Below, piece by piece: positions 11,281 through 60,277 of a stretch of 64,000 bases of DNA (position 1 is the stretch's first letter; the number at the start of each line of letters is the position of its first letter). The DNA comes from Amphiscolops sp. MND2022 (taxonomy: Eukaryota), in NCBI GenBank assembly GCA_964187785.1, contig OZ076409.1:51648001-51712000 (forward strand), given 5' to 3'. Position numbers and translations under genes: made by a program. The notes under the pieces were generated by a model, which was not told where the DNA came from, did no database searches, and saw only the letters and a program-made list of their open reading frames with translations.

Positions 11281-11316
11281 ACGATTGTTTTCAGCGAAAC
11301 TCCTGGGCTGGCGCAA

Positions 11317-11827: not shown

Positions 11828-11828
11828 T

Positions 11829-26594: not shown

Positions 26595-26641
26595 CTAAAC
26601 AAGAATACAGGCACAAATTATCTCCAAACAGAGTACATTAG
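26252..26641 (+). CDS. LTR-encoded Gag N-terminal-like ORF of solo LTR E, reading out through the LTR end
   Basis: The MPEKSQKRK start parallels MSTTRSQKRK; coiled-coil-like segment; frame open across 26594. Confidence 0.5.
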   Translation: MPEKSQKRKLRSDQGTSQEEIENCNASNDENVSLSEQDFEDISNKIENRLSKRLRDTEFGQREILRLIENLASKVDNLSNSVSEQCSSAVHFELETDPIENTGNESINRNASSNTKQEYRHKLSPNRVH

Positions 26642-28077
26642 CTGAATCTAAAATGGAAAAACACTTTGAAATATATATAGAGAGATTACGCCTCGTCAAA
26701 ATAAGGCGATTTATTTGCGTTTGAACAGCATTTAAAGTGGTTTAGGACGCACGGATTGCGCAAAGCAAACAATACGGCAGTGAGAACTTGGCTACATGTA
26801 TATTTGTCGTCTATAGGGCGCAGACAAGTTTTGAAGGTATACTAAGTGACGTCACTGCCTCGTCTATGCATACCAAAATTCATTCCAATTATCCTCCTAT
26901 ATCACCCACTATGCTAGAAAATCAATCCGATTTACCGCCTGCGTGACGTCACAATACTCGTAACTAGCTGTTAACTTGTCTCAAAATATGCGTCAACGAT
27001 GCGGCAAACTTGGCAGAGTTCAGTATTGCCAAGAAAATGCGTCACAGTGACGATGACAAGTTTATGAAATTAGTTGGAAATAGGTAAATCTGTCAAAATA
27101 ACCGGTTTTATCCTCATGTTTAATTCGCAGCTTCATAAGGAAAATGATAATGGCTTTTCTTAATCCGCAATGCAGACGTTTCGTCAATGTTAAGCTATCT
27201 GAAATTTCACACTTAAAACATATCTGATATAGGTGTAGTATAAAATCCAGTTAGTGCGTTAGTTAGTCGTCATGCATTTTTTGACAATAGAGGATTCCTA
27301 CCCGGATATCTTTTAAATGAGATTTCACATGAAGTTAAGCAAAAGTCACAGTTTATACTCACGTTCAGTGCGGGTAAAATATATTTTGTACCCAGAAATG
27401 TATTTTCATAAGTTTGTACCTTTTACTTTCAATTTGGCAAATATGTACATGATAATTGTTGATGCAATCATCTTCTTATCTACGTTCCCCTAATGGGCTT
27501 GGGAAATGTTGTGCTGATGACGAAATTATAGTTGTGAAAGTGCTAATTGTTGTTATACTATTGGTTTTGTAAAATATGACGCAATTGGTGCGACAAACCA
27601 AGTTTTGTATCTGTTTTATTCTTTATTTTGTTGGAAATTCATGAATGTTAACTTTATTTCTATACTTGTGTTAATCGTCCAAAATATTCTCCTAGCATCG
27701 ATTAAATAATCCTAGTTTGGAATTAGTCATTGCATTTTTATCAAGTTGAAATTCAAAATCAGGTATTAGTTGTTCACGTCAGCGTCATCTCACGTCAATT
27801 TCCCGCGAACCAAAGCAGCAAAGCAGGGAACTATTTCCGGTTTGATAGACTGAAGTAATATCTACTTCCTGCTCGGGAGGAAGCAAAAGGACGCCGGAAT
27901 GAAATGATATGAATATGTGTGATGACTAATACTAAAAGTAGAACATCGTGTCTCAAATTTTGTCGAATTGTCGACGCACTTTTGGGATTTTGATGATTTT
28001 TTCACCGAAAAAACAGGAAATGACTAATCATTTTAAAGAATTTGGGAATATGTACGTGATCAAATGATGCTAGGAGG

Positions 28078-28090
28078 GTATATATAGGAA
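28078..28090 (+). promoter_or_regulatory. Putative TATA box of the LTR promoter
   Basis: GTATATATAGGAA ~160 nt upstream of the gag ATG; counterpart GTATAAATAT in copy C LTR (~57140, minus strand). Confidence 0.5.
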
Positions 28091-28243
28091 GTGCACATTT
28101 TTCTAAGGGACTCAGTCTTTTGCCAGTGCTACAACTTAGTTGTTTCAAACTTGCTGTTCTCAAACTATTCTCATCCTTCTAACCCTGTTGAAAATCAGAA
28201 AGTGAAAATTGAATTCTTCAAGAATAAATCTTTCTTCAACATC

Positions 28244-29686
28244 ATGTCTACAACACGAAGCCAAAAGAGAAAGAATACCCAGCGAGAAGCTGATGATAAT
28301 GTAAGTGAAGGCTTTGTATCGTCAATAAATACGGAAAATTCTCATCCTTTAGATCAAAACGTAGAATTAGCAGGTCCTTCGAGACCCAAGTCCCCAAGAG
28401 TAGAAAATAGTTTCTTGGAAAGCATAAGGCCCTCTCTGAAGGAGGAAATAACGTCCGAGATTAGGACTCTTTTGCTTGAGTCCCAAAAGGAAATGTTGAA
28501 ACTCTTGAGATCTGAAACGAAAGAAAACGTAAGGGATCACGTATCAGAAGAGCTAGAAAATGAAACAAGAAGCTTCTATACTCCGACGAAAACAGTGCGA
28601 ATTAATTCTACCCAAAACGAAGATCATAGCATAATTCGTAACATGGTGACAGGAGTTTTAAACGACTCCACCAATCAACCCAAGAGAACAAAGGTCCGAT
28701 CTCAAAGCCAACCCCCGTCAAAAGAACGCCCAGCAATAACGCGAACTTTGTTCGCCCCAGACCAAAATAACACCACGATGCTACCCATGCCAAAAGCTCT
28801 AACGGCATCACTCCCAACTTTTGACGGGAAATCCGAAAAATTCGAGCTCTTTGAAGACCTCTTCAGGAACAATATCAAAATGTATCGGCACCTTACAGAA
28901 ATACAAAAGATAAACTACTTCCACTCCCTGCTCCGGGGAGACGCCTTACAAGCTTTTTGCAACATTGAAGACTCGAAGAAAGACTCACTAGACGAAATTA
29001 TAACGATATTCGAACGACGATTTGGGGACTACCTGTCGATGGCAAAGGCTAGATGCGAATGGGACGCACTAAAATTTGACCCCTCGACACAAAAACTCCA
29101 CGAATTCCTGGATGTACTACAGAGAACTGCAAAAGAAGCCTTTGGAACAGAGGCACAGCAATTCATAGACAAGGCTATATACGCCAAAATGCCAGACCAC
29201 GTCAAGAAAATACTAAACCGCGCATACCTCGAAGACAAACCCTATAACGACATAGTACTTCACCTGGAAAGGGAAATGCGTCTCAATGGACTAGGAGCGC
29301 CAGACGAGGTAAGGTTAGTGCCCTTAAACAAAATTGAACCTGCCCAAACAAAAACTGAACCTAAACCAGTGGAAACTACCGCTCAAACCACTAAAAAAGG
29401 GTACTGTTTCTATTGTAACAAATTCGGACGTCATAAAGCTGAATGTCGTAAAATGAAGAGAGACAAATGGATGCAAACCCGAAGAAACAACGGACCAACC
29501 AACCACAGTGCAGGTAAACCACCCAAATGCGATACCTGCGGCAAACCCCACAAAACAGAGGATTGTTGGAACGGAGCCAATGCTGCCAACGACCCACGAC
29601 CTAAGCGTCACAACACACAAGAAAGTAAAAGGGACATCAACGTCACTCAATCAACAAACCAACCCGATGATGAATCAAAAAACTAA
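28244..29686 (+). CDS. gag: Gag (480 aa); the first 133 codons lie inside the 5' LTR
   Basis: Intact ORF with LPTFDGKSEKFELFEDLF, YFHSLLRGDAL and zinc knuckles CFYCNKFGRHKAEC and CDTCGKPHKTEDC. Confidence 0.92.
   Translation: MSTTRSQKRKNTQREADDNVSEGFVSSINTENSHPLDQNVELAGPSRPKSPRVENSFLESIRPSLKEEITSEIRTLLLESQKEMLKLLRSETKENVRDHVSEELENETRSFYTPTKTVRINSTQNEDHSIIRNMVTGVLNDSTNQPKRTKVRSQSQPPSKERPAITRTLFAPDQNNTTMLPMPKALTASLPTFDGKSEKFELFEDLFRNNIKMYRHLTEIQKINYFHSLLRGDALQAFCNIEDSKKDSLDEIITIFERRFGDYLSMAKARCEWDALKFDPSTQKLHEFLDVLQRTAKEAFGTEAQQFIDKAIYAKMPDHVKKILNRAYLEDKPYNDIVLHLEREMRLNGLGAPDEVRLVPLNKIEPAQTKTEPKPVETTAQTTKKGYCFYCNKFGRHKAECRKMKRDKWMQTRRNNGPTNHSAGKPPKCDTCGKPHKTEDCWNGANAANDPRPKRHNTQESKRDINVTQSTNQPDDESKN
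28644..28656 (+). promoter_or_regulatory. Primer-binding site TGGTGACAGGAGT (possibly tRNA-Leu type)
   Basis: Directly follows the LTR end ...TAACA; same motif in A, D and the 51-kb fragment. The tRNA identity is inferred. Confidence 0.8.
29677..29683 (+). promoter_or_regulatory. -1 ribosomal frameshift slippery heptamer A_AAA_AAC at the gag-pol junction
   Basis: Immediately before the gag TAA; the -1 frame is open (KLITPRLRFGETVD...) into ORF 29833. Confidence 0.8.
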
Positions 29687-32600
29687 TTACGCCGCGCCTG
29701 CGCTTTGGGGAAACAGTAGACGCGAGGGCATATTCTCCACAAGAACCCCCATTAACGTATACCAACGACACGACTGTAGAGTGCTCAGGCAGCCCATCAG
29801 AAGCATGGCTGAGACAACAAGCAATCGCATCTATGAAACGACACCCGCCACAAGAGGATCAAAAAGTAACACCTCCAAACGATCAGGATTACAGAAACGA
29901 TTGCCGACATCACGAAAAAACACCCTCTCAACCAATCATCACCACCAAAGAACCCGCTGCTCAGACCCAAGGAAACCCAGTTGAAAACGTCCACGACGCC
30001 TGCACTTCGTCACAAATGTCCGAGAAAGATACATACGGCTCCACCGGGTCACCTATCCTCCACGACAACTTCCCCACCTTCCTCAACTCAATTAAAGAAT
30101 ACGTAACTGAAAAAGATGGTAACACTTATATACCACTCCACTCAACAATAGTCCTCAAGAACAGAAGACGAATGCTTTACTTGCCATTGGAATTTGGGGA
30201 ATTAACAATGGACGGCCTTGTCGACTCAGGAGCGTTTATCAATGCCATGTCATGGTCCGATTACAACGCCATTAAAATGAACAGCGATAATTGTGTCATA
30301 AAGGAGTATCCACAACCTCCTTTCAAGGTCGAATGTGCAAACGCACAACTAGAGCAACCTATCGCCACTGCAGACATTCAATTCAATATTGGAACATACA
30401 CGTTCACTGACACCTTTGTCATACTATCAAAGACGTCATTCCCCATAATCGGACTGAACTTCATGAGAAACCACCAAGCAGTAATCGACACAGCCAATGG
30501 GACCATCACCTTCCCTCACGTCGAAATGACACTAGCCATGACAGATGAAAAGAAAAATTGTAACCCCAAACCACTCCAAATTATGGCTGAAGGATATCAG
30601 ACGTTGCCACCACAACAAACAACAACCGTTAATGCAATAGTCATAACCACCAATACAATCGACATCACAGGAGCAGTACAACCGCTCCCACAGTTCGATG
30701 AAACAGCCACCATCATCGTTGCACCAGCACTAGCCACAGCTCACAACAAACGAATCAACCTCCGAATAGCCAACTTGACAGATTTCCCGCACACCATAAA
30801 AAACCACACCAAATTGGCAGAATTACAAATCCTGAGACCAGAGGACACTAAACAAATACGACCTGTAGACGTCGCAACGCTGACCACCTTACAAGATCCA
30901 GATGACACGCACATGTATGTAAATGAGCTCATGAAATCCTCAAACGATGAACGAAACGATGAAAACCTCTGGTTCCTAACACCCGAAAACCCGGGAAATG
31001 AAGATGAACACACACCAATACAAAAACGAATATTTAAGGAAATCAGAGAACTCATAAAAAAAAGAACAACTTGATCCCACCAAAGACCCAGAATCAAGGA
31101 AAGAATTCCTCGACATGTTCAAATGGGAAGGATCACAGATTGAGGGAAACGACAAGAAACAGCTGGAGCAAACGATAGTTGAATACAACGACATCTTTGC
31201 ACGTCACAGACTCGACATCGGCATCAATAAAAGCTTCAAAGTAAAACTGACGCCAAAAGATGAACGACCCATATACACACAGAGCCTGCCAGTGCCGATC
31301 AACCTCAAGGAAGACCTAACAGTCGAATTGGCACTCATGCATAGATATGGCATAATCACGACACTACCATTTTCAAAATAAGCCAGTCCGAGTTTTGCAC
31401 AACGCAAACCAAACGGTAAACTACGTTTACTGGTCGACCTGCGAAAAATCAACGCACTGATATCTGACGATTACATCAACAACAACCACCCAGTCAGCAC
31501 CCTGTCAGACGCAGCCCAACACTTAGCTGGGAAAAGGCTGTTCTGTAAACTAGATTGCTCCCAAGCATACCACTGTCTGCAAATGGCTGACCAGAGATCA
31601 ATCGAAATGCTGGCATTCAACTTCGCAAGCAGAACGTTTGCATATAAACGCCTGGCACAAGGACTGAGCAGAGCATTGTCAGCATTCTCCAGCTTCTTGA
31701 GAGAATACTTGGACAAAGTAATCAAAGCTGACCAGTGCGCGCAATATGTGGACGACATTGGAATAGCCGCCAACTCCGTGACGCAACTGATACGGAACAT
31801 TCGAGCCGTCTTCGAATGCATCAGACAAGCAGGACTTAAACTATCTATCGACAAATGCCACTTTGGAGTGACTGAAGTTGAATTCCTCGGAAGAACAATC
31901 ACTCCGCAAGGAATCGCCCCCCACGACCATTAAATACAAAAATTCTTGGCAAATGTACGATTTCCGAAAACAAAAAAACAAGTACAAAGATACATCGGCT
32001 TTGTCAAATATTATCGCAACTACATCCCGCGATTATCTGAAAAACTACTCGGATTCTATGAGCTACTGAAAGCAGATAAACAGATCAAAATCACTGAAGA
32101 ACTACTCGACCATTACAAGGCGATCAACGCAGCGCTGTCGCAAGCCTGTGGATTGGCTCTCAAACAACCAATTACAGGACGACAATACGTCTTAATGACG
32201 GATGCCAGTTTTCCAGCTTCTGGCTACGCATTAATGATCGAAGAGGACAATGACAAAAAAATCAATTCCAAAAAGAAAACATTTGCCCCAGTTGCATTCG
32301 GATCGAAAGTATTTTCCCCAGCTCAACTGAAAATGTCTATCTATTGCAAAGAATTCTTGGCAATTTCTCATGCCTTCCTAGAATACAGCCACATCCTATG
32401 GGAAGCAACCCTACCGACCCTAGTGATGACAGACAACAGATCAGTAACAAGATTTTTTCAAACAAAAGCGATTCCACCCACACTGTGGAACGCATGTGAC
32501 TACATCCTACAATTCAATTTCCATATCATGCACGTAGCGGGAACGCAAAATACTGCGGCAGACTTCCTCTCAAGAATTGACCTCAATCCCAAGGAACGAG

Positions 32601-34627
32601 TCGAACTGAAGATCCGCGATGATATCACAATACGACCAATACAAGCCAACCTCCAATCGACAGACGTCGCAGATGAAGAACAACTATTTTTTCTTCCCGA
32701 TGAGACCATCGAAACTGAAGAGGAAATCCTACTACGAAAAGAACAAGCTAGATAAAACGCGCACGATGAAGCGCCGGCGAAAATAAAAATGGCCATGCAA
32801 GAAACCACCCCAATACCAATAAACAAAGCCTCATATACCTTTGGCGCAATTAAAGAAGATGCACGCATTAGAGTCGAACAAGACTCAAACTTAGTCTTCA
32901 AGGCAATCAAAAGGAAACTGATTTGCGAAGAATACGACAAACATCTTCTACAAACTGACCCGACAGCTAAACGTCTTCTAGTCCACGAAAACAGACTAAT
33001 AGTCAAAGATGGCATCCTAATGCGTAAATATTACGGTGAATGTGGCCAAGTTACGCACCATCAAATACTCATCCCTGAACACTTGATCACAGAACTTCTG
33101 AAAGCAATCCACGGACAAATGGGAAAACACCCAGGAATCACAAAGATGATCCAAGAGTGTAGATCTAAATACTACTACCCAGGGCTAGCGAAACGCATCA
33201 AACAATAGGTACAACAATGTGAAGACTGCATCAGATATAAACGAATCAGTAACGCTCAAATCAAACCGAAAATGATCAACAACACAGATTACGTCCTAGG
33301 ACCGGAAGACATCCTAGAGATTGACATATTACCTAACCTACCAAACTCTGCGGGATACCAGAATATCGTCACAATGATAGACGTGTTTTCGTTTTCGCGA
33401 TATCTATTTGCCTACCCAACACAGAACGCCACAGCGAGGACGATTGGCCGATGTATTGTCGATGTCATGACAAGGCACGCATATCTGCCGACATTAATCC
33501 TATCGGATAAAGGCTCCCAATTCCGATCAGAAGTTGTTGCAGAAATAATGCAAATACTGGAAATACAAATCAGTCATGCTTCCACTAAACAGGCTCAAAC
33601 AATCGGAATACTGGAAAGAACTCACGCCTCAATCAAAACGGCACTGAAAATATCGACGGGTAAACGACGCTCAATGTGGCATAAATATGTCCAAATCGCA
33701 GTGATGAACTATAACACAACCTACCATGAAACGCTAGGCTGCGAACCTTCCACAGTATTCCATGGACGAATACCGTACAATATACTGGACCTAAAATTGG
33801 GCATCAGACCAAAATGGAAAACTTCATCTAATTCCGACCTAGTCGAACAACTACAAAAACAGATTGACGAAGTGCGTGCCACGGCAAAGGACAATATTAT
33901 GTTGTCTTATCTCAAATACAAAAAGTACTATGACCGCAAAGCATCTGCAGCCCCACTGAAAACAAACGATTATTGCTACATACTCAACCCGAAAGCCGAC
34001 AACCAATCGACAAAATTCGCATTCCAAGATTGCATCTGGACAGGACCGTATATAGTGATAAAAGTACTTCCAAATAACAACTATACGATCCGAAAAATCG
34101 GCACGAGATACACAAAAACGCTACATCGCATTAGAATACGACCTTACATGCCAGAAAAACGATTGCCTGACGTCACAGTACGGGCAAACGAATATCTTCC
34201 AGATCCGGACGTCAAAGTGTCGCACAACGAATGGTACGCTGTATCGTGGGAAATGGATTTTGGCAAACAAATAGACGAACACGAAGCGACAAGAAGTTCA
34301 GAAAACAATCAGCAGATAATCACACAAGAAGTGGCGAACACGAATGACGACACGATGACGCAACAATTATCAGACAATCAAAATGACGACACACATGACG
34401 TGGCACCGACGTCTCCAGATTTTTCAAACCTCACTACTGACGTAGGGGATAATCCATATATACGACGTCCCCCACCCACTGAAAGTCCACCTATTCCCCC
34501 AAAATCACCGCCTACAGTTGTCGGTTATAATCCGAGGCAAACAGCAAAATACAATTTACGACCTAATCCTAAACCTAACGCTAATCCTGACTTCAGAAGA
34601 CTTGACGCTATCACTATGACTCAATAG
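29680..34627 (+). pseudogene. pol: Pol (protease, RT, RNase H, integrase) with one frameshift and four premature stops
   Basis: LVDSGA, LDCSQAY, QYVDDIGI, VLMTDAS, HHCC, EIDIL/SDKGSQF/ILERTH and WTGPYIV. Lesions: A-run near 31060 and stops at 31379, 31931, 32753 and 33206. Confidence 0.95.
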
Positions 34628-34864
34628 AAAAGCAAATATCAGGAGTCCAGACCGAATCGATCTGACTATTTTCAATTCATAGCATACTACGACCATTCTT
34701 TTTTCTCCTTTGATTACCAATATTTTGATTCTCCAAGACAAATTACTTTTAATCAAGAAAATAATATCTAACAAACTGATAAGAACAACATAACAAAACG
34801 CCCGAAGACGCAAAGAAATTATACAAAAATCAACAAACAGTTTACAAATCGAGTACGGCAAATT

Positions 34865-37800
34865 CTATTGTTTCTTTGTGGCGGCATCAGAACTCTTCCG
34901 GGTGGCCCTCTTCGCAGACACTTTAGATGAATCAACAGCTCGCTTCGACCCAGATCCAGTGTTTTTCTTTCGACCCAATAATGAGCCAACACTGCTATAT
35001 AAATGTCCCTTCTCAGGAGTTGCAGCAACAGAAGAACCCACAACAGATGATGATGGACTCTCCGAACATGACACAGTTGACACGTCGCCCCCCTCACCAG
35101 CTAGCATTTTTCGCCCCCGCTTATTGGCATGACGCAGATTAGAATACGACTCCCCTTTCTTGCGACTAAGGAAGGCATTAAACAATTCAAGATATCGTGT
35201 AACAAATGACTCCTGACCACCGCAGCAGATACGCTCCCAAGGATCATAGGAAGCCAAGTTCATGAAATCCTGAGCCCCATTTATAGCATTTCGGACGCTA
35301 TCCATCGTATGTTTCGTAAAGAAGGCTTTCTGCTTGTAATTTGATGACAAAACACAACTCTGCACTCCACGAATACACGAAGTAACAGTCCAATACGGCA
35401 CAGCACAACCCGAAAGGTTAATGTCTACGTCAGGGTATTTCTGTCGAGGTTTCAGGACAACTAAACAGCACAATTCAAACACCCGGCACAGTTTCTTGCG
35501 GGCCAGAAATGAGTAATCTCCCAGCAGATAAGAGACGACATCAGGAATATTCTCAGCGACCTCATCACTGGTGGCATGACGACCTCGGACGTCCACAACA
35601 AATGTACGCAACTCTTCAACAGCTGACTTGCACTCTACGTCTGAAATAACTCCGCAACGCTCCAAACGTCGAGCCAATTGATTAAACAAGTCAAACACAT
35701 ACTTGTCATCCCCTTCCAACAGGAGTCCGGGGCAGAAACAAAATAAGCCACTCGTAAACTCAGACGACGCTGCCTGTTGTGCCAAGATCAGTTCCACAAA
35801 ACGATCGATAAATTCACGACAACGATCTTGAAAGTCACGACCCTCACTCCCTTTAAATTCACGCAGCATTGCACCAAAATCATAGTTTTGCAAGAATTCG
35901 GCTGTTGGTATTACCTCAAACTGAGACAACTTGGACACGTCCATATACTCTTCCCATGCATTGACATTTAGCAGCGACGAAACATGACGACTACGTGACA
36001 ACAGACAATACACTAGTTGACATAGTTCCATATACGCATGGAAGCCATAATCTGCGCGTCTTTGCTGCTGCTTCTTGAAACAAACTGCGTCTAAACACAT
36101 CAACCCTACTACATCTGCCTTTCAACAAAACGAGACGAAACGCAGACGACAACTTACAAAGTTCTAGGACATGTTTGAGCAGACCCAGACGGAACACATT
36201 CGTAGTTTCGGTGAAAACCAGCCAGTCCACACCTCGCATCTGAAACAAACCCAACTACCTCAAATCTCACTACCAAAATAACCCAACTTTGCCAACCCCA
36301 ACAGACCTCAAAGAAAAAACAAAAAGAGGGAAGGATACAAAAAAAGAGAAAAAACAAAACTTACTCTGTCAGAAGAGCTCTTCAGGTGCCGAGCCCCAGT
36401 GTAGCGAACATATTCTTTGACGAATTTCCACACAAGAATCAGTTCCGAGACGAAGCCACACAAGTCAGCAAAGGGTACCCGCCCAGCAACACTACAACGA
36501 CGAACGACGGTCACGTCCTCCGTCCACGGCTCTTGGAGTGCCCCGCGCAGACGTAACACCAGAAAGTCAACCATTGAAGTCACCTCGAGCATGCCGAAGA
36601 CCTCTCGATGAGCCTCTCGGAAACATTGCAGAAAGGCCTCCTCAGAGAATTCCTGACCCAAAACGAACTGCCGACCATCAACTCGATTGTCACTAAGTAC
36701 ACGCAACAAAGACGCACTCCCTCCTTGACACGACATGGGCAATTGGCATGACACAATACTGTCAACCACACGAGACAAACCAGCCAGCTCTGAGTTGGGG
36801 ATTTTCTGTCAGACGCCTCAACATGGACACAGACACAAAACAGCTCATGACCATCCCAAGTCTGTACATAACAGCTATGCGACGTCCCATCATCTACGAA
36901 AAACACACTGTAGTCGCGGAAAGCAGTCACACGTGCGATCATTGATCGAAGTACACGAGGGAACAGGGCTTGACAGATCAGCGACTAAAACAACAAATTA
37001 CCAACGCTCAACACACGGAAATCCCAATACCTACAGACTCATTCAAACACTAGAATCTGCTTCAAGCCAACGATACAACTACGATACACCCCCCCTAAAA
37101 AGCATGATAAAACATACGAAAATACTAACCAACGACTCTTCTCGACTCCACTTTAGACTGTACAGAGGATTTTCCGGCCCCAAAGTAGCACGAAAACAGC
37201 CCCACAACTTTCGCAATAAAGTGTAGCTGCCACCACTGCGCAGGAGTTCCAGTGAACAAGTCACTAGTGTCAACAAAGGAACCGATGAATCGACCTGAGT
37301 GCATGCGGGCAACAGATCCTCCGGGAAGCTGAATCCCTCGGCTTTCCCCTTGCAGGGACGACTTCGATAATCCTCCAATTGCGTATCTGTCAGCTCCATT
37401 GGATCCATCAGCCGATTGAACACAGGCAAATTATTTTGAACGCGATAAGTGACGTCCAATTGCCAATGCCGCTTGCCAAAGAAATGTCGACTGAACTCCA
37501 ATGCACCACGAGACTACATTGAAACGTCACGGTGACAAATCATACAGAAGAAATGTTTGTCACAGCCAGTACTGGACCCGCTGACAAACAACTGGTAGAT
37601 GGGGTTATCACCTATCATGTCGCGACGAAGACGTTTCCGCATACTGTACACTCGTTTTCGTTGCCGCTGAGGTGACGAATTCTCCTCTAAACTGGCCTCG
37701 ACACGACTCACGACCTCCTGAAACCCTATAAACACAAAACTTCCTTTAATCAAAAGAAATCACGTCGTACGTGGACCACCAGCATACAATCCCAAGATCA

Positions 37801-38980
37801 CGACTCGGGATATAAAACTACCCGGAATTTCCCTCAATTCAACTACTAACAGAGAGGATGAACAAGACAAAAATTCGCAATCGAAACTACTCAAATACAA
37901 CAATACTCACGAGCAACAAAAGGCTCCACTGTCCGACTCTCCAATTCAGAAGCCACAATCTCTCCCAATCTAGCAGCCTGCTGTGGCGTACAAGGCAAGG
38001 ATGCATCAGGAACAGCCTCTTCATCAGACGTCTCAAGCTGGAAATCACTCCGCTGCAGTACTGTTCCACTCTTGTCCACCCGACGTTGTTTAGAAGTCGA
38101 CTGGACCATCGCATCATCACTGGGTGACACCACAGTAACTATAAACACAACACCCAAAGCCCAATTACAAAGAACGTCAACATGACACAACCCCACCCAA
38201 ATACACATACACCATAAATACTATCAATCTACACACAAGAACTTACCATGTTTAATGACAGGCGATGCAGTCTGACTCCCAAATGTTGGCTCAAACCCAG
38301 GCAAATATGCAGTAAATCGTGGGGAAGGCGTTTGTTGGGCACTGCGGGAATTTCCCCCTCTCCAGTTTTTCCCGGCCGGGGGGAGGAGCCTCACCTACGT
38401 GAGTCGGAGGGGTACAGACACCGACAACAGGAGACTCTGGTGTTGGCAGCCTCGCTGTTTCTTCAGGAGCCCCAGTAACTTTATCCTCGACTCTGCCAGA
38501 AACCAATTTAGACAAAGGGACATCAAGATCAGCTTGCGGTGACGCAGGCGGATTGAGCATCCCAGAAACAGTCTCCAAAGGAACAATCGTACCACTCTCT
38601 AGGGGTATAACCCCAACGGAAGAAAGATCAGCTGGTAGCGGAGCAGTTTCAAGACCAGAAAGAGTGTGAAGGGAGGCAGGAGTGACGTGAACAGCACCCT
38701 CTAGGGAAGAAACAAGAGCCGATCCTGGCACTAAAACGAAATCCCACATTCGACGCGTCAGAAAAACTAAGCTATGAAAATACAAAACAGAAAAGGCCTA
38801 TCTGTCAAAAGTATATTTCATGGAAGCTTAAAGGAAAGTAGGGATAGCAAACCAACCAGGTGCCGGCCGGACAATTCGATTATCACTCTCACTGTCACGA
38901 ACATCTCCTTCCGAAAATGCAAACTGCGTCTCGTTGCCACTCACAGCTCCTGGATCAATACGACCACGGGACGTAGACAT
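34865..38980 (-). pseudogene. Antisense 7-exon cargo gene of copy B (~1120 aa, degenerate hAT-transposase-like); exons 38980-38857, 38730-38247, 38138-37911, 37725-37130, 36984-36365, 36239-36158, 36090-34865
   Basis: All introns are GT-AG with phases matching copy C. Three lesions: frameshift near 38360, TAG at 37514, and a 1-nt deletion near 36803. Confidence 0.88.
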
Positions 38981-38999
38981 TGCAAAGCGATGAATCTGA

Positions 39000-39420
39000 A
39001 AAGTCAGAGGTGAAAACAACAACCGAAAATTTGATGTCATCAAAACGGTGACAAAACATAAAGTTGTCTAATAACCAACGAAAATGGCGTCGACATAACG
39101 TCGACAAAAAAGGTTATCAGGATTAGGAAATTAATCCCATTTCCTAAAATGACGTCATCAAAACGGTGACAAAATCAGAAGTTAGCTAAGCTAACAAAAT
39201 GACTTCAGCATAACGTTGACAAATTTGACTAAACGAATTATTTTAATTTGCAGCCAATAAAAACTCGACGTCGTCATAGCGACAATAATAAAGACTGAAA
39301 ACGATTAAAATGATTGTTTAACCAATCAGAATAGAGGGATTTATCCCAATATTCGCCTTAATCCCTAATAATCCTAAATTCATTGTGGAACAATCAAAAC
39401 GAAGAAATCAGCTGATAAAG
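39000..39420. promoter_or_regulatory. Putative bidirectional promoter between the antisense gene and ORF3
   Basis: Head-to-head ORFs; TGACGTCA and GACGTC palindromes, CCAAT boxes (~39254, ~39322) and an internal duplication; motifs conserved in copy C. Confidence 0.6.
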
Positions 39421-39427
39421 AAAGAAG

Positions 39428-40186
39428 ATGAGCAATCTCCTTGACATTTATGAATTAATCGACATATCCTCGTCAAGTGAGGAAGAAGGTGAAATTGAAA
39501 GGGGATCCACCCCGCTACCAAGAGACAGTCAGGTGAACCCCAGGATAATATTTGAAATTCCCCACTCGTCAGCAGAGGCGACGGCAGACGATGGAGAATA
39601 CCTCGATTTGTCATTAGACTCACTGGAAACTGACTGTAAAAGAATGAAGCTGAGCGATTCTTATACCAGCTTCGAATCGGTGGAATCTGGGGAGTATCCT
39701 CATTCAACTGACTCTGGAGAAGCACCAGCCGACTCTCCTGAAAGCCTTGATGAACAAGAAAAGGGGGAAGATAACAGCAGCCTAAGTTCCGGAGTGTTCG
39801 TTGTGGAAAGACATTATGCTCACAGCTCTAAATCAGTAACGAGCACGAACGTTGCGGACTATTTAGAACATGTTGTCCGAGAAGATGCAAGTTCTTTTTT
39901 CGTCACTCCTCCGGGACCATTAAGAAGGGTCAATCTTCGATTGATAAGCCCACTGAACGACCTAGAAGAAAAAGGGACAGCAGCAACAAGTTCTAAAAGG
40001 AATAACAACTACAAACAGTTCCAGCATCAGCCGTTCCAGTTCTGCCAACCCGGGAGAGCCTTTCGCCCCATGACAGTGGCCCTGTCACAGTCCGCTCCCG
40101 GACTGGTTTGCGGCTGCAGACGAGTAGGATACGGACGTGGGCACGGCTGTACAGCAAAATTGGCAAACAGGTATTTCAGATACTGA
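39428..40186 (+). CDS. ORF3: 252-aa acidic, Ser-rich protein with a CGC..GxGRGHGC tail encoded by the first 104 nt of the 3' LTR
   Basis: Intact; colinear homolog at 59022..59753 in copy C. Confidence 0.85.
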   Translation: MSNLLDIYELIDISSSSEEEGEIERGSTPLPRDSQVNPRIIFEIPHSSAEATADDGEYLDLSLDSLETDCKRMKLSDSYTSFESVESGEYPHSTDSGEAPADSPESLDEQEKGEDNSSLSSGVFVVERHYAHSSKSVTSTNVADYLEHVVREDASSFFVTPPGPLRRVNLRLISPLNDLEEKGTAATSSKRNNNYKQFQHQPFQFCQPGRAFRPMTVALSQSAPGLVCGCRRVGYGRGHGCTAKLANRYFRY

Positions 40187-42444
40187 CTCAAACTGTAGTT
40201 AATGATTAAAATAAACTGTGACTGAAAATGAAAATACGTCTAGTGTGCGCAAATCTAAAAATGAAAATGGAAACAGAGAAACACAGCCAAAATGATTTCA
40301 TACATTTCCGGCAGGACGTTCCCATAACGCTGAATTAAACATTTTCCACCTGAAAATTAAATTAAAAGATGTCTTAGGAAAAGATCATAGACTAAACTAA
40401 ACAAGAATACAGGCACAAATTATCTCCAAACAGAGTACATTAGCTGGATCTAAAATGGAAAAACACTTTGAAATATATAGAGAGATTACGCCTCGTCAAA
40501 ATAAGGCAATTTAATTGCGTTTGAACAGCAATTAAAGTGGTTTAGGACGCACGGATTGCGCAAAGCAAACAATACGGCAGTGAGAACTTGGCTACATGTA
40601 TATTTGTCGTCTATAGGGCGCAGACAAGTTTTGAAGGTATACTAAGTGACGTCACTGCCTCGTCTATGCATACCAAAATTCATTCCAATTATCCTCCTAT
40701 ATCACCCACTATGCTAGAAAATCAATCCGATTTACCGCCTGCGTGACGTCACAATACTCGTAACTAGCTGTTAACTTGTCTCAAAATATGCGTCAACGAT
40801 GCGGCAAACTTGGCAGAGTTCAGTATTGCCAAGAAAATGCGTCACAGTGACGACGACAAGTTTATGAAATTAGTTGGAAATAGGTAAATCTGTCAAAATA
40901 ACCGGTTTTATCCTCATGTTTAATTCGCAGTTTCATAAGGAAAATGATAATGGCTTTTCTTAATCCGCAATGCAGACGTTTCGTCAATGTTAAGCTATCT
41001 GAAATTTCACACTTAAAACATATCTGATATAGGTGTAGTATAAAATCCAGTTAGTGCGTTAGTTAGTCGTCATGCATTTTTTGACAATAGAGGAAACCTA
41101 CCCGGATATCTTTTAAATGAGATTTCACATGAAGTTAAGCAAAGGTCACAGTTTATACTCACGTTCAGTGCGGGTAAAATATATTTTGTACCCAGAAATG
41201 TATTTTCATAAGTTTGTACCTTTTACTTTCAATTTGGCAAATATGTACATGATAATTGTTGATGCAATCATTTTCTTATCTACGTTCCCCTAATGGGTTT
41301 GGAAAATGTTGTGCTGATGACGAAATTACAGTTGTGAAAGTGCTAATTGTTGTTATACTATTGGTTTTGTAAAATGTGACGCAATTGATGCGACAAACCA
41401 AGTTTTGTATCTGTTTTATTCTTTATTTTGTTGGAAATTCATGAATGTTAACTTTATTTCTATACTTGTGTTAATCGTCCAAAATATTCTCCGAGCATCG
41501 ATTAAATAATCCTAGTTTGGAATTTGTCATTGCATTTTTATCAAGTTGAAATTCAAAATCAGGTATTAGTTGTTCACGTCAGCGTCATCTCAGCGTCAAT
41601 TTCCCGCGAACCGAAGCAGCAAAACAGGGAATTATTTCCGGTTTGATAAACTGAAGTAATATCTACTTCCTGCTCGGGAGGAAGCAAAAGGACGCCGGAA
41701 TGAAATGATATGAATATGTGTGATGACTAATACTAAAAGTAGAACATCGTGTCTCAAATTTTGTCGAATTGTCGACGCACTTTTGGGATTTTGATGATTT
41801 TTTCACCGAAAAAACAGGAAATGACTAATCATTTTAAAGAATTTGGGAATATGTACGTGATCAAATGATGCTAGGAGGGTATATATAGGAAGTGCACATT
41901 TTTCTAAGGGACTCAGTCTTTTGCCAGTGCTACAACTTAGTTGTTTCAAACTTGCTGTTCTCAAACTATTCTCATCCTTCTAACCCTGTTGAAAATCAGA
42001 AAGTGAAAATTGAATTCTTCAAGAATAAATCTTTCTTCAACAACATGTCTACAACACGAAGCCAAAAGAGAAAGAATTCCCAGCGAGAAGCTGATGATAA
42101 TGTAAGTGAAGGCTTTGTATCGTCAATAAATACGGAAAATTCTCATCCTTTAGATCAAAACGTAGAATTAGCAGGTCCTTCGAGACCCAAGTCCCCAAGA
42201 GTAGAAAATAGTTTCTTGGAAAGCATAAGGCCCTCTCTGAAGGAGGAAATAACGTCCGAGATTAGGACTCTTTTGCTCGAGTCCCAAAAGGAAATGTTGA
42301 AACTCTTGAAATCTGAAACGAAAGAAAACGTAAGGGATCACGTATCAGAAGAGCTAGAAAATGAAACAAGAAGCTTCTATACTCCCACGAAAACAGTGCG
42401 AATTAATTCTACCCAAAACGAAGATCATAGCATAATTCGTAACA
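40083..42444 (+). repeat. Copy B 3' LTR (2362 bp)
   Basis: TGTCACAG...CGTAACA, followed by TSD TGGAC. Confidence 0.95.
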
Positions 42445-42449
42445 TGGAC

Positions 42450-43010
42450 CTCTACCCAAAAGCTTACCATTCCTACACTGCCATACCAAAAGAAACAACA
42501 CCAAACCAATGCGAACATGTGGTGGCGAAATTTGTCCAATACAAAAAATGACAAAAGACATCCACCTGTCAACTATGACGAACCGCAAGGAAATATTACC
42601 ACAATACCGTGATCAACTCGAAACAGAAATAAAAGACATTATCTTAACAATCTTTAGGCAATCGGACAGAATGCTATCACAGAGATGACAAAAACGGTCA
42701 GAGACAAATAATCGAGTTCTCTTCCACTATGTTAATTTTACACGCTGTCCTGTTTACACTTCACACCAGAAAAAAAGTACACCATAGCACGGCCGATTTC
42801 TTTGGCCTGAAGCGAGAAGACGGTGAATCCGCAACAGACGTCTGTAAAGAGATCTTAGAAGTAGTGAAGAATTCGAGACAATACCCGCGGCTGACCTCCT
42901 GGGACTAAAATTCCTCTCACTCATTAGCAAGTCTATCGGCGACTACGACCTGAAAAAAAATTAGAAAAAACGATCTGTCCATAGAAGCCATAACCGAAGC
43001 TAAATCACGG
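42450..43010 (+). pseudogene. Remainder of the degenerate gag interrupted by copy B
   Basis: Fragments NANMWWR, FVQYKK, EILPQYRDQLETEIKD, ADFFGLKREDGES and SKSIGDYDLKK in shifting frames. Confidence 0.55.
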
Positions 43011-44195: not shown

Positions 44196-44905
44196 TGTAA
44201 CGGCTGCTTGCCCTTTTCCTGCGCTGAGGCTTGACAAGCTTTACGCCGCCCTGATCCGTTGCTTAGTACTGTGGACCGTTACTAAACAAATCCTGGTTTT
44301 CTTGTTTTAAAGGACTGTATCTTTTAGCTTGATGGGTCCGATGTGACCCGTGGAATCTCCTGCGATCCCTCTTTGCACTGAATTGGATCCGATGTGATCC
44401 TGCACACACTTCCCTCACAGTATCTTCACGCGCTCCGGCTCTCCAACTATGAGAGTAGCTACTTAGTCGCTCTAACTCTAGCGAAAAGTTGTGAAGATTG
44501 AGAAGTAGATTAATTAGTCTCGCGGTCCTGAGACCCAACTTGACCATAGCTATACAGTGGAGAAAATCTCATAATAATTAATACATCAAATTTGGGTAAT
44601 TCATGGGGTCCGACCTAGGTCACTTTGGGTGTTAATTGCTCTGAACCCAGGGGCGATACGGGGTAGGGTGTTCAGAGTGAAAAGTTAGGGGAACACCACC
44701 ACTATATGTGTGCCAAGTTTCAAGGTTGTTGAATGAGTGGTTCGTCGGGACGGGGGGTGGTGTTTTATTGGGATGCCCCATTTCTGGTGAGACTTGTAAT
44801 TTTCAAACTAAAATCTTGACAAAATTTCTAAGAGTTTTGAGTTATAAGTTTCATCAGTCACGTTCGAATTTGAGTTTCTGATCTCGCAATTGACTGGCGC
44901 CAACA
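44196..44905 (-). repeat. BEL derivative 3' LTR
   Basis: Direct repeat of 47898-48608 with TG...CA ends. Confidence 0.95.
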
Positions 44906-47229
44906 TTGCCGGCCCTGTTTTTCTCCTGAAAAACACTTTCGTAGAACTTGGGTGCCAGTTTCACTACTTGTCTTTTGAGTTTTCCATCTTCAGTTCTCAC
45001 CAGCGCTGATCTCACTCGCCCATCGCTTCCATGATAGACTTCTAACACTCTAGCCATCTTGTAGCGAGCTCTTTTTACATTTTCATCTACTTTCCAAACC
45101 AAATCATTGACTTCTAGTTGTCTAACTTCTTCTTTATTCCATTTTCCAAATAATTCAAGTTGCATCATCATTTCTTCCCATGATACAGCCGGCCCTATGA
45201 AAGGCCCATTTTCCGAATTTGTTGTTGTTTGTGCTTTTGAAGAACCCAATTGCGTTTCCATTAGCGATATTTCATCTGCGAATTCATCTATCACAATCTT
45301 TGCATATAGGATGCCAGTTGTCAATTGAACACTTTCAACCATTCCATGTAATAGGTTTGAGGTGTGTTCAAACTTCCAAGCTTGTTTCTTCGGTCGCTTG
45401 CGGTGGCTTTTGCTCAACTGAGTTTTATCCATGCCGTTAGCCTGTGCCACCGCGTCCATCCCAGAGTTTCCATTACCAATCCGAGGGTTCCACTCATTGC
45501 TATTACTCGGGATAGTTTCTTCTACAAGGCTTACTTTGAAGTCAACATCAAATTTCTCTCCAAAGGTTGCAATCACGGTACGTGTTTCACATTTAGCATT
45601 GCATTCAACGGGTTTGTCATGTTTCGCTGCAACATGACATAGCTTTCGATACATTGCTTGTTCACTACAATCATCAAGCAGTGCAAATTGTTGCTCATGC
45701 ACAAATCCATAACTTTTGTCGAATTCAAAACATTTGTTTCCTTCTTCAAGAAGTAGAGTACTGTCATGAAGCATCGTCACTTCAAATATTTTCCCTTGCT
45801 GTACATCCTGTTGAACGGTGAAAACTTCTGCACTCTCTTGCAGCAGTTCACGTTGGACACTCGATTCTCCCAAAGTTTGCTTGCTAGATGCGAATGATGT
45901 TGGAGATTTTGAGTCTCTCCTAAGCGCGGAGAATTTTCCTTCGTGAACTAATTTCACTGCATTCTCTGATTTCAAATGAACTGATAGTGCAATATTGGAC
46001 TTAGCGCCGTCTTCGACTGTTTCTGTCTCAGCCATGCATCTTGAGTCTTCCGTGAAACTGTCGACTGATGAGACACTTGGGAAGCTAGTCCCCTGACTGC
46101 TCGACACTCCCGCTATTTCTCTTTCTTTTTCAGCTATTCTCGCTTTGCGGGCAAGCTGTTTATGCAAGTCAGCTATTTCCATTTGTATTGCTTCACGCTT
46201 CAGTTTCTCGAGTCGGGTTTGCAGTTCTTCTTGCTCTTTCTGAGCTTTTACTTTCAAATAAAGAACTCGTCTATCAATTGAACTTTTCGAAATCACTGAG
46301 CTTCTGTTGCTTCTGGTTTCAACCAGTTTTGGATGTTTGCCCAGTTCCTCTATTTCCAATTGTCCAGTCTCGCTTCTTTGGCCTTGGACTTCATCCGATT
46401 TCTGATCTTCCGCTTTCTCTAATGCTAGAGGAAACAGTCGATCTCCATTAGACCACTTCGTGCTAACTGTTGGTCTATTGTCCATCAGGATTGTTACGTC
46501 AGACACCTTACTGTTTTCTTCGAGTAGTGATGTCACATTGTTGATTGAGTTTTCCACTTCAGATATGCTGTCTCTCATACCACCGCAACTTTCTTGGTCC
46601 TTGGTCTTTCTTGACCGTGTCAGTGATTCCTTTTCACTGGCTGTTTTCTTTACACAATTAGGTTTTGCCTGATGGACACGTTTTTGCCTCAACTTTCTTG
46701 TGCGAGGGCATCTCATAGCTGAGTCTGCAGATGTTCCATTTGTCATCTGACTCAGTTTCAACTCTTTTGTCCCATCAATTGGACACTTCAACATTTGCTG
46801 CACATCGGGGAACCAATATCCCCAACTCGATTCCATTTTCGCAAAGAAATTGTCCCATTCAGTCACACTTCGACTGAGCTGTCTTTGCGTTTCTTCATTT
46901 GTAAGACTCAACATAAAGTCTACACAGAACAGCAATGCCTGTCTTCTCTCGCGGTATTCAATTACCCAATCAATCAAGTTTCTTTTGGATACAACAGCTG
47001 TTTCCTCATCGAGCTTGTCATCCAAGTCTTTTACTAACGTATGGATCTTTTCCACATGTAGGGGTACAGTATTCCAATAGAGGCTCCATGCGTACCAATC
47101 TGACACATTTTCCAACTCTTTTGGTCTGATTTCCATCAGTTGTTGGCTCTGCTTTGTGTTTCTTCCTTCAAACACATTTGTCATTCGAGGGTGCTGCATC
47201 ACTTGCCTTTCTTTCTTTTTGGCTTTCAT
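44854..47229 (-). CDS. 791-aa ORF: Gag-like helical/coiled-coil region fused to a BEL integrase C-terminal (DUF5641-like) tail; no PR, RT, RH or IN core
   Basis: KWNKEEVRQLEVNDLVW...MARVLEVYHGSDGRVRSALVRT..G.LKRQVVKLAP at the C-terminus; no YVDD or protease-context DS/TG motif. Confidence 0.8.
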   Translation of the reverse strand: MKAKKKERQVMQHPRMTNVFEGRNTKQSQQLMEIRPKELENVSDWYAWSLYWNTVPLHVEKIHTLVKDLDDKLDEETAVVSKRNLIDWVIEYRERRQALLFCVDFMLSLTNEETQRQLSRSVTEWDNFFAKMESSWGYWFPDVQQMLKCPIDGTKELKLSQMTNGTSADSAMRCPRTRKLRQKRVHQAKPNCVKKTASEKESLTRSRKTKDQESCGGMRDSISEVENSINNVTSLLEENSKVSDVTILMDNRPTVSTKWSNGDRLFPLALEKAEDQKSDEVQGQRSETGQLEIEELGKHPKLVETRSNRSSVISKSSIDRRVLYLKVKAQKEQEELQTRLEKLKREAIQMEIADLHKQLARKARIAEKEREIAGVSSSQGTSFPSVSSVDSFTEDSRCMAETETVEDGAKSNIALSVHLKSENAVKLVHEGKFSALRRDSKSPTSFASSKQTLGESSVQRELLQESAEVFTVQQDVQQGKIFEVTMLHDSTLLLEEGNKCFEFDKSYGFVHEQQFALLDDCSEQAMYRKLCHVAAKHDKPVECNAKCETRTVIATFGEKFDVDFKVSLVEETIPSNSNEWNPRIGNGNSGMDAVAQANGMDKTQLSKSHRKRPKKQAWKFEHTSNLLHGMVESVQLTTGILYAKIVIDEFADEISLMETQLGSSKAQTTTNSENGPFIGPAVSWEEMMMQLELFGKWNKEEVRQLEVNDLVWKVDENVKRARYKMARVLEVYHGSDGRVRSALVRTEDGKLKRQVVKLAPKFYESVFQEKNRAGNVGASQLRDQKLKFERD

Positions 47230-47574
47230 TTGTTCATATGACTCTTTTGTTCCACTGAGGGCTTTCGAACTTCACAATTGTTTCTTGTAGGTTTTGTCAC
47301 TTATCCCAACTTTGCAATTTCTCAGAAACAAAGTGTCAACTGCTCAATCCGGTAATCAATCGCCAATTCTTGAAGAATCAACCCAATACTGTCGATTATA
47401 CTTGCCTTCTTTGACGAACTTGATTTTTTCAGTGGATCGTGTCCCTCTGACTTGATCCCTTTGCTTTACCTGGTGGATTTACTTGCAATGACGTCTTACA
47501 CCAGATCTTTGCTTCAATCAGGAATACGTTCCCAAAGAATACAATTCGTCTCAAAACTAGAAATGATGCACAAA

Positions 47575-47760
47575 TACCTCCAGAGTGCCGCTAAAGCCCA
47601 ACTCCCAGAGTACACAATAGTTCAATCTCCCAGAGACACAGTAGCCCAATCTCCCAGAGACACAGTAGCCCAATCTCCCAGAGTCACAATAGCCCAATCT
47701 CCCAGAGTCACAATAGCCCAATCTCCCAGAGTCACAATAGCCCAATCTCCCAGAGACACG
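47575..47760. repeat. 24-bp tandem repeat (~7 units) in the leader of the BEL derivative
   Basis: GCCCAATCTCCCAGAG(A/T)CACA(G/A)TA units; a second short array of GTTGTCCGGGTCGTCCACCA units lies at ~47830-47888. Confidence 0.9.
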
Positions 47761-47897
47761 AAATCAGATACTCCAAGACCCAGTTCTTGGGCAATCTTCT
47801 GTTGTCTACCAACGAGTCGTCTTCTTCTAGTCCGGGTCGTCCACCAACGAGTTGTCCGGGTCGTCCACCATTGAGTTGTCCGGGTCGGCGGACCAAA

Positions 47898-48608
47898 TGT
47901 AACGGCTGCTTGCCCTTATCCTGCGCTGAGGCTTGACAAGCTTTACGCCGCCCTGATCCGTTGCTTAGTACTGTGGACCGTTACTAAACAAATCCTGGTT
48001 TTCTTGTTTTAAAGGACTGTATCTTTTAGCTTGATGGGTCCGATGTGACCCGTGGAATCTCCTGCGATCCCTCTTTGCACTGAATTGGATCCGATGTGAT
48101 CCTGCACACACTTCCCTCACAGTATCTTCACGCGCTCCGGCTCTCCAACTATGAGAGTAGCTACTTAGTCGCTCTAACTCTAGCGAAAAGTTGTGAAGAT
48201 TGAGAAGTAGATTAATTAGTCTCGCGGTCCTGAGACCCAACTTGACTATAGCTATACAGTGGAGAAAATCTCATAATAATTAATACATCAAATTTGGGTA
48301 ATTCATGGGGTCCGACCTAGGTCACTTTGGGTGTTAATTGCTCTGAACCCAGGGGCGATACGGGGTAGGGTGTTCAGAGTGAAAAGTTAGGGGAACACCA
48401 CCACTATTTGTGTGCCAAGTTTCAAGGTTGTTGAATGAGTGGTTCGTCGGGACGGGGGGGTGGTGTTTTATTGGGATGCCCCATTTCTGGTGAGACTTGT
48501 AATTTTCAAACTAAAATCTTGACAAAATTTCTAAGAGTTTTGAGTTATAAGTTTCATCAGTCACGTTCGAATTTGAGTTTCTGATCTCGCAATTGACTGG
48601 CGCCAACA
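47898..48608 (-). repeat. BEL derivative 5' LTR
   Basis: Direct repeat of 44196-44905, followed by the PBS on the minus strand. Confidence 0.95.
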
Positions 48609-60270: not shown

Positions 60271-60277
60271 GAAAAGA

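Follow-up and report, generated by a model that had tools for sequence, protein, structure and literature searches.

How can a gene interrupted by six introns persist inside an element that is copied through RNA, and does such a gene belong to the element or is it only carried along? These questions are raised by a 64,000-nt stretch of the genome of Amphiscolops sp. MND2022 (GenBank assembly GCA_964187785.1, contig OZ076409.1, positions 51,648,001 to 51,712,000, forward strand), the whole of which is called the window here and provides the coordinates used below. In its interval 34865-40186, between pol and the 3' long terminal repeat (LTR) of a Ty3/Gypsy retrotransposon (copy B), lies a seven-exon gene antisense to the element, and a diverged relative (copy C) carries the same arrangement. 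A first-pass annotation of the window regarded this module as a selected accessory system encoded by the element rather than as passively captured DNA. Our results support this view by four lines of evidence: a ratio of nonsynonymous to synonymous substitutions (dN/dS) of 0.11, a maintained gene structure, constraint on a second open reading frame (ORF) of sense orientation, and linkage to pol in 26 of 26 cases. We therefore consider it probable that the elements represent a Ty3/Gypsy clade with accessory genes of its own between pol and the 3' LTR.

The seven-exon antisense gene

In copy B the antisense gene occupies the minus strand between pol and the 3' LTR, is oriented tail-to-tail with pol, and comprises seven exons and six introns. 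Six-frame comparison and global alignment of the minus strand of copy B with the plus strand of copy C reveal seven protein-similar blocks, split by diverging and indel-bearing stretches; the exon borders were set by motif and by comparison of the two copies. The exons are as follows.

38857-38980, minus strand: exon 1, 124 nt, with the ATG (motif borders, comparison of B and C)
38247-38730, minus strand: exon 2, 484 nt, frameshifted (486 nt in two sister copies; motif borders)
37911-38138, minus strand: exon 3, 228 nt (acceptor AG in 30 of 30 loci)
37130-37725, minus strand: exon 4, 596 nt, with a CxxC..H..H zinc-finger-like motif (colinear with the intronless relative P0171, see below)
36365-36984, minus strand: exon 5, 620 nt (621 nt in intact copies), with an RNase H-like core (predicted structure of the exon of copy C)
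36158-36239, minus strand: exon 6, 82 nt (AG/GT borders; equal length in all 24 C-type copies and in the B types)
34865-36090, minus strand: exon 7, 1226 nt including the TAG stop (408 codons and stop), 237 nt from the pol stop (colinear with P0171)
60278-60392 (115 nt), 60520-60879 (360), 60992-61234 (243), 61387-61982 (596), 62101-62721 (621), 62870-62951 (82) and 63081 onward (1253), plus strand: exons 1 to 7 of copy C, without stop or frameshift

Exon 7 of copy C covers 63081-64000 within the window and ends 333 nt beyond it (locus L047); the gene of this copy is open throughout (3270 nt, 1089 codons). Both the exon map and a sense ORF at 39428-40186 bear out the head-to-head arrangement originally described for copy B, and copy C indeed carries the same module in the same place (exons from 60278, sense ORF at 59022-59753). 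The six introns match between the copies in position and phase as previously stated: each of the 12 donors reads GT and each of the 12 acceptors AG, and the phases are 1,1,1,0,0,1 in both. The lengths given earlier for exons 4, 5 and 6 (596/596, 620/621 and 82/82 nt in B and C) are confirmed as well. Besides copies B and C, nine further copies carry the antisense gene in the interval from pol to the 3' LTR, oriented against the element. The guanine-cytosine content of the gene is 0.51 in exons vs 0.36 in introns.

A TTTTCAG acceptor-like site is found about 25 nt upstream of the antisense ATG and is kept in both B (38985-39005) and C (60250-60277). Hence, the gene may have a non-coding 5' exon and thus a seventh intron. 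The six introns show no similarity to one another or to other parts of the window, with the exception of intron 1 of copy B; hence, there is no hint of transposon-derived introns.

The first-pass annotation described the exons as conserved and the introns as largely diverged. This holds for introns 2-6, which are 55-72% identical, with indels, between the C type and a further subfamily of the same genome (D type), but not for intron 1, which is better conserved than the exons (92-93% identity between C and D type, 85% between C and B).

38731-38856, minus strand: intron 1, unusually conserved, with a predicted hairpin (copy C counterpart at 60393-60519, plus strand)

This intron folds into a shared predicted hairpin, in which four of the 31 predicted pairs are maintained through changes on both sides, and its G-U pairs favour the strand of the antisense gene's own transcript. 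The z-scores of the fold reach only -1.8 to -2.2, and an Rfam search of 34500-42500, the hairpin included, gave no match.

Constraint, linkage to pol and intronless relatives

A search of the 1.07-Gb genome with exon 4 yielded 355 C-type and 377 B-type candidates at first look. The best-scored 40 of the 355 C-type candidates fall into 24 with 96-100% identity and 16 with 83-85%, the latter being the D type, and 30 loci of 3.6 kb were compared. In the genome as a whole, intron-bearing copies number in the hundreds and belong to at least five subfamilies (B, C, D, E and a fifth type). At the 24 C-type loci, donors are kept in 144 of 144 cases and acceptors in 143 of 144; splice sites, phases and exon lengths are maintained in all subfamilies examined. 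From exon 1 to nt 408 of exon 7, the gene is open and in frame at 16 of the 24 C-type loci and at two of the six D-type loci.

Between C and D type, the antisense gene has a dN/dS of 0.108-0.111 (dS 1.03, dN 0.11, 800-803 codons). Hence, the check that had been suggested gives a value of about 0.11, far from 1, at a synonymous divergence of 1.03. Between C and B, the proportions of nonsynonymous and synonymous differences (pN and pS) are 0.28 and 0.77 over 1068 codons, the latter being saturated. For comparison, pol of the same lineages has a dN/dS of 0.036-0.058 at dS 1.0-1.3. A six-frame control of C vs D shows that the annotated frame is the sole stop-free one and has the lowest pN/pS (0.06 in exon 4, 0.15 in exon 5). 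The other five frames of these exons each contain 7-18 stop-bearing codons, and four have a pN/pS above 1; the reverse frame with shared wobble positions reaches 0.18-0.22, yet it includes 7-9 stop-bearing codons. Differences in exons 4 and 5 between C and D amount to 0.03-0.135 at codon positions 1-2 vs 0.38-0.41 at position 3. These patterns point to purifying selection on the antisense gene across the family. Many of the copies are young: the identity of paired LTRs is 99.76-99.9% in the C type (three pairs, one of them partial), 97.9-98.7% in the B type and 96.3% in the D type, and of four C-type copies examined, two retain gag and pol frames that are free of interruptions.

The second gene of the module and the region between the two genes are located as follows.

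39428-40186, plus strand: sense ORF of copy B, 252 residues, acidic and serine-rich, its last 104 nt within the 3' LTR
59022-59753, minus strand: sense ORF of copy C, 243 residues (comparison of B and C)
38981-39427: intergenic region between the divergent genes, with repeats of about 118 bp, ATTGG/CCAAT motifs and a TGACGTCA palindrome

The N-terminus of the sense ORF is nearly invariant (MxNLLDIYELIDISSSSEEEGEI), and this start may represent a SUMO-interaction motif; the C-terminal tail, which is encoded by the first 104 nt of the LTR, is rich in cysteine, glycine and arginine. The frame is open in 7 of 11 copies examined, and between subfamilies pN is 0.21-0.24 vs a pS of about 0.80. Accordingly, the sense ORF is under constraint as well. 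The start codons of the two genes are 450-525 nt apart. The palindrome TGACGTCA, which is of the cyclic AMP response element type, is present 18 times in the window, where 1.29 occurrences would be expected (14-fold enriched); sites at 26847, 26944, 40647, 40744, 58348, 58445, 39150, 59981, 60033 and 60150 belong to the U3 of the LTRs of B and C and to the intergenic region of the module, and others lie elsewhere. It would be reasonable to regard the intergenic region as a putative bidirectional promoter.

The linkage between module and pol was analyzed with an 800-nt probe from the integrase end, for which 40 matches with at least 95% identity were scored among 1888 candidates. In 26 of these 40, a C-type exon 7 (at least 97% identity) is situated about 1.25 kb from the integrase-end match; conversely, all 26 C-type exon-7 matches are placed in this way. 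At two loci, L052 and L053, an integrase end with 98% DNA identity to the C type is accompanied by an open exon-7 homolog of 426 residues, which in protein is about 50% identical to both the C and B types. Furthermore, two C-type copies whose exon 4 is 99% identical differ in pol by a dS of 0.106. The simplest reading would be that pol and the module are shuffled by recombination, and that the module is traded between lineages. Recombination is common among co-packaged retroelement RNAs.

The gene also has intronless relatives. When 1.84 billion representatives were screened with an exon-5 profile, 285 clusters were retrieved at E <=0.001, mostly exon-sized ORFs of unannotated assemblies. Among these relatives, P0171 (890 residues, on a 4-kb contig) runs unbroken through the joins 4/5, 5/6 and 6/7, and P0157 and P0128 through the joins 5/6 and 6/7. 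In the alignment with P0171, exon 4 corresponds to residues 57-249, exon 5 to 250/251-449 and exon 7 to 473-883; exon 6 is too short to be aligned separately. A protein search with exon 7 found 45 database relatives of ORF size, and a search for longer protein relatives of exon 7 and of exon 4 found none. When the window's own genome was searched with P0171, 11,115 candidates were obtained at first look, and the best 51 that were scored are all contiguous frames of about 860-920 residues with 47-53% identity, 28 of them free of stops. Many of these intronless copies contain exactly one in-frame TAG (a class of 873 residues) or TGA (a class of 897 residues), which may reflect either a mutation passed down in one subfamily or a site of read-through.

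Intronless relatives far outnumber intron-bearing copies in the same genome. The one such copy that was fetched, L051, has an ORF of 905 residues, tail-to-tail with an integrase that is 44% identical to that of copy B. Because L051 shows the same antisense position, an opposite-strand gene located between pol and the 3' LTR is a feature of a broad clade. The layout is not special to the family of the window, given that the intronless relatives are commoner and the fetched one is alike; this family represents the variant in which six introns are present and exons 1-3 add about 240 residues at the N-terminus.

The antisense protein and competing explanations

According to the proposed model, the antisense gene would be read opposite to the genomic RNA, from an internal promoter, and then spliced. 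Its six introns would persist through retrotransposition because the genomic RNA carries them as CT..AC, so that they stay unspliced; we find this antisense-intron logic sound. The protein would no longer cut DNA, and the module would move between lineages via recombination. As to its function, the antisense protein possibly binds nucleic acids in a sequence-specific manner and thereby acts on the LTR or the internal promoter of its own element, or else influences the choice of targets, as proposed for Retand elements and known for deltaretroviral HBZ (see below); this assignment is tentative. A bolder version would combine several features: a major animal retrotransposon clade with thousands of copies took in a catalytically dead protein resembling DNA transposases as an antisense regulator or targeting factor; intronless forms and six-intron forms with three added N-terminal exons coexist, either via intron gain in a gene carried by a retrotransposon or via erasure of introns, when the reverse transcriptase of the element returned spliced antisense mRNA to it; the module is exchanged like a cassette; and the hairpin of intron 1 is functional. 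We regard this combination as rather doubtful.

An opposite role deserves consideration as well. The antisense protein or its transcript, the latter as antisense RNA or small RNAs, could dampen the element, either limiting the element itself or serving the host, and restrained elements might persist longer. The constraint on the module applies equally to this case; RNA transcribed in antisense through the pol-LTR interval would pair with the genomic RNA, and intron 1 contains a conserved hairpin. However, constraint acts on the protein frame and not on transcription alone, and hundreds to thousands of copies are unlike a restrained family. Hence, we consider a repressor improbable.

Another possibility is that the antisense gene is a hAT-like DNA transposon that is still mobile on its own and nested incidentally in the LTR element. 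It draws on the predicted fold of exon 5 and on weak leads from sequence features. The protein itself has about 1,090-1,120 residues and consists of a fast-evolving N-terminal part (exons 1-3), a putative zinc finger (exon 4, whose CxxC..H..H motif was seen by eye), an RNase H-like part (exon 5), a long, predicted helical region and a basic, serine-rich tail (exon 7). The predicted order of a zinc finger, an RNase H-like core and helices is shared with hAT transposases and their derivatives (Hermes; ZBED, FAM200 and GTF2IRD2-like proteins). A feature-based atlas provided weak leads only (scores 0.79-0.89), to zf-BED, zf-C2H2_12, DUF4371, FAM200-ZBED5_RNase-like and DUF659, and weakly to Mollusca. 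Exon 5 of copy C was folded alone (AlphaFold2) with an alignment of 82 sequences, since a mixed alignment misplaced fragments of exons 4 and 7. In this confident model (predicted local distance difference test, pLDDT, 86.2), an initial helix is followed by three strands, then by a helix, a strand, a second such pair and final helices, as in RNase H-like folds. A structure search returned many RNase H-like and ASKHA cores with Z 5-6.8, covering only residues of about 21-112 (a core of 75-95 residues); the sole match over the whole length is Hermes of the hAT group, with four entries (residues 152-350, 177-184 aligned, Z 5.8-6.0, root-mean-square deviation 5.2-5.9).

Nevertheless, the module lacks flanking terminal inverted repeats, and none that convince were found at its borders. 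All 26 C-type exon-7 matches keep a constant distance from the integrase, which is difficult to reconcile with independent mobility. The exon translations, P0171 and P0227 have no Pfam match to the hAT dimerisation domain, DUF4371 or zf-BED; sequence and profile searches of solved structures with two family profiles and P0227 gave chance-level rows only. DUF4371 (PF14291) has no match in the window's own genome, which is uninformative, since control genomes are matchless too. The positions equivalent to the DDE residues were assigned from the predicted model. Of 47 sequences, 16 have E at the end of strand 1, 12 have D and 8 have K, and after strand 4 the residues are G/G/S, with D in two of 80 sequences; the first two catalytic acidic positions are thus not conserved in the family. 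An autonomous nested transposon is therefore very improbable. Without a sequence-family match, conserved catalytic acids, a detected hAT C-terminal domain or inverted repeats, the antisense protein is best described as transposase-like, probably non-catalytic, and we do not file it as a member of hAT.

A host gene that was captured once in reverse and copied along as a passive hitchhiker could show conservation merely because the copying is recent. Many copies are young, with LTR pairs 96-99.9% identical, and copy B and several others are broken, as would be expected in this case. This explanation is scarcely tenable: it is already contradicted by subfamilies at a dS of about 1 or more which retain the frame, the splice sites and the dN/dS of 0.11, and the gene is also present in the lineage whose integrase is only 44% identical. 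The notion that the seven blocks are separate short ORFs or relics with coincidental GT-AG borders, which draws on the fact that splicing is deduced from DNA alone, is hardly conceivable, since intronless relatives join the blocks without gaps at the predicted borders, 24 copies together retain 287 of their 288 splice dinucleotides, the phases are consistent, and the contrasts in GC content and divergence are those of real exons and introns.

Several points weigh against an accessory system owned by the element. The copy at the interval considered here is itself non-functional: exon 2 of copy B is frameshifted (484 vs 486 nt), an in-frame TAG interrupts exon 4 (37514-37516), and exon 5 has a 1-nt deletion. 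These two frameshifts and the single stop leave the layout of copy B inside an LTR-bounded element as described, but make its own gene defective. Transcription, splicing and the promoter of the antisense gene are all deduced from the genomic sequence. The six introns were either gained in the intron-bearing lineage or lost in the intronless one; a loss via recombination with reverse-transcribed spliced antisense mRNA, if true, would itself prove splicing at these sites. The dN/dS values were calculated by the Nei-Gojobori method from pairs of single genomic copies, and the B-type exon set mixes four copies, with synonymous sites saturated between B and C. As a counterpart of the sense ORF, the intronless element has only a DIYE[IL]I[ND] heptad, which is not significant (E 0.53). 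Hence, the two-gene module is valid for the intron-bearing lineages but not for the intronless element. For 14 of the 40 integrase-end matches, no C-type exon 7 is listed; two of them (the loci L052 and L053) were inspected. Pfam gave no match for the exon translations, the sense or antisense protein, P0171, P0227 (E up to 10 for the exons, P0171 and P0227) or 82 relatives. All structure scores of exon 5 are below Z 8, a range in which a common arrangement alone may explain them, so that the link to hAT is suggestive and no more. Finally, the model of exon 7 is predicted helical with a poor pLDDT of 48.6, and a Foldseek search with it found no match at E <=0.001.

The surrounding elements and comparable systems

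Repeat and BLAST analyses identify copy B as a complete Ty3/Gypsy LTR retrotransposon with TG..CA ends and a 5-bp target duplication, TGGAC. The interval 34865-40186 comprises its whole space from pol to the 3' LTR and the first 104 nt of this LTR. The following features delimit the element.

24371-24375: left target-site duplication TGGAC, repeated at 42445-42449, directly outside the LTR ends
24376-28643, plus strand: 5' LTR of copy B, 98.1-98.6% identical to 40083-42444, interrupted at about 24697-26594
28088-29686, plus strand: gag-containing open frame, stop-to-stop (Pfam DUF1759, E 6e-9), its first 556 nt inside the LTR
29674-34627, plus strand: pol with protease, reverse transcriptase, RNase H and integrase (Pfam RVT_1, RT_RNaseH, Integrase_H2C2, rve)
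40083-42444, plus strand: 3' LTR of copy B, 2362 bp (repeat and BLAST pairing with the 5' LTR)
42445-42449: right target-site duplication TGGAC, matching 24371-24375
56596-59125, minus strand: 3' LTR of copy C, bounds approximate and projected from copy B

As the LTR of copy B is 2.36 kb long, the repeat covers the first 550 nt or so of the frame that holds gag (28088-28643). Tandem arrays of LTR, internal region and LTR were considered and rejected, the LTR itself being 2.36 kb. A TATA-like box occurs near 28075 in the 5' LTR. Directly after this LTR, at 28644, starts TGGTGACAGGAG, a TGG-initial site resembling a primer-binding site; it may resemble the 3' end of tRNA-Leu. A tRNA scan of the 64-kb window found none, and the bases preceding the 3' LTR are not clearly purine-rich. 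In copy B, pol is disrupted by three in-frame stops and a frame change. The pol of a sister copy (1641 residues) has its top match among solved structures in Ty3 Gag-Pol (7q5b, E 7e-46), next to the Ty3 reverse transcriptase (4ol8, E 4e-29). Together with the order protease, reverse transcriptase, RNase H and integrase, this shows that the name Gypsy given in the first-pass annotation is correct at the superfamily level.

Four other features were observed in the window. Within the 5' LTR of copy B, a 1.9-kb TG..CA insertion with a CTAAA duplication (24697-26594) resembles the solo LTR of another element. Downstream of copy B, direct repeats at 44196-44908 and 47898-48611, which are 99-100% identical and 3.7 kb apart, suggest a separate small and very young LTR-bounded element (44196-48611). 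A duplication of about 3 kb at 16864-21225 (99% identical, spacing 3048 nt) holds arrays of 58-nt tandem units and TGACGTCA sites. A third and more distant relative, copy A (3844-15330, minus strand), shows 64-72% identity to copy B in gag and pol and has a large interruption at about 4.7-11.8 kb; its module side would fall before the start of the window.

The kind of system described here is already known from plants and fungi, and it has parallels in viruses and in engineered constructs. HBZ of human T-cell leukaemia virus 1 (HTLV-1) is a small basic leucine zipper regulatory protein, made from a spliced antisense transcript that is driven from the 3' LTR. Our gene is comparable in that it is encoded opposite to the genomic RNA, at the 3' end of an element that uses reverse transcription, and may specify a regulatory protein; unlike in HBZ, the promoter appears to be internal and shared with the divergent sense ORF. 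The reporters his3AI and mneoI are engineered for retrotransposition assays with an antisense intron. In these reporters, too, an intron in reverse orientation passes the RNA intermediate unspliced, whereas the present case is natural and includes six introns.

In plant Retand elements, the regions between pol and the 3' LTR measure 2.9-6.6 kb, antisense ORFs encode TRP28 (Transposase_28) in 97% of clusters, and a regulatory role has been proposed (PMC11963269). This agrees with the statement of the first-pass annotation that antisense ORFs occur in plant Tat/Retand elements, to judge from the main text of that paper. According to the same source, the Retand/Tat elements resemble ours in the long interval between pol and the 3' LTR (5.45 kb here), the antisense domain that is transposase-related and probably DNA-binding, the tandem repeats and the lineage-wide occurrence. 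They differ in that the host here is an animal, no Transposase_28 match is present, the gene has seven exons and six introns, and the sense ORF is constrained; the word 'intron' occurs 0 times in that main text (PMC11963269). In fungi, Boty-like Ty3/Gypsy elements of Botrytis cinerea have an additional gene in antisense orientation, brtn (Zhao et al. 2011, as cited in PMC8365987). Like ours, this extra opposite-strand gene reportedly lies in the interval from pol to the 3' LTR, but the host is a fungus and the gene is small, in contrast to the protein of about 1,100 residues with an RNase H-like domain described here.

Among animals, LTR retrotransposons of bdelloid rotifers have captured extra genes (ORF3s) between pol and the 3' LTR; these are treated as further ORFs of the element, and in the text sections of that paper covered by our look-up 'intron' occurs 0 times and 'antisense' is used for small RNAs only (PMC5408684). 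Troyka elements do not fit, as the text portions consulted ascribe to them CG..CG ends and 3-bp duplications (PMC12440569). The first-pass annotation knew of no described animal Gypsy lineage with this architecture. Consistent with this, we found no animal LTR element with an intron-bearing antisense gene in searches of full-text literature, a scope outside of which lie Repbase, Dfam, GyDB and supplements; term look-up in PMC10294476 and PMC13524379, limited to the matching parts of these texts, found none either. New are the animal setting, the size and exon number of the gene, its predicted RNase H-like fold, the presence of intron-bearing lineages alongside intronless ones, and the apparent cassette-like exchange of the module.

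For annotation, the consequence is practical: gene predictors will take these exons for host genes, and repeat libraries free of the module leave about 5 kb per copy unmasked. More generally, extra genes reveal how retrotransposons acquire functions past gag and pol. So far, discussion of antisense extra genes has centred on the Retand/Tat elements of plants, a single fungal family and a few retroviruses; the present clade, with its hundreds to thousands of copies, would extend the phenomenon to animals. It offers an unusually good natural system for studying the role of such genes for the element, the origin and loss of introns under reverse transcription, and the recombination of accessory modules between lineages.

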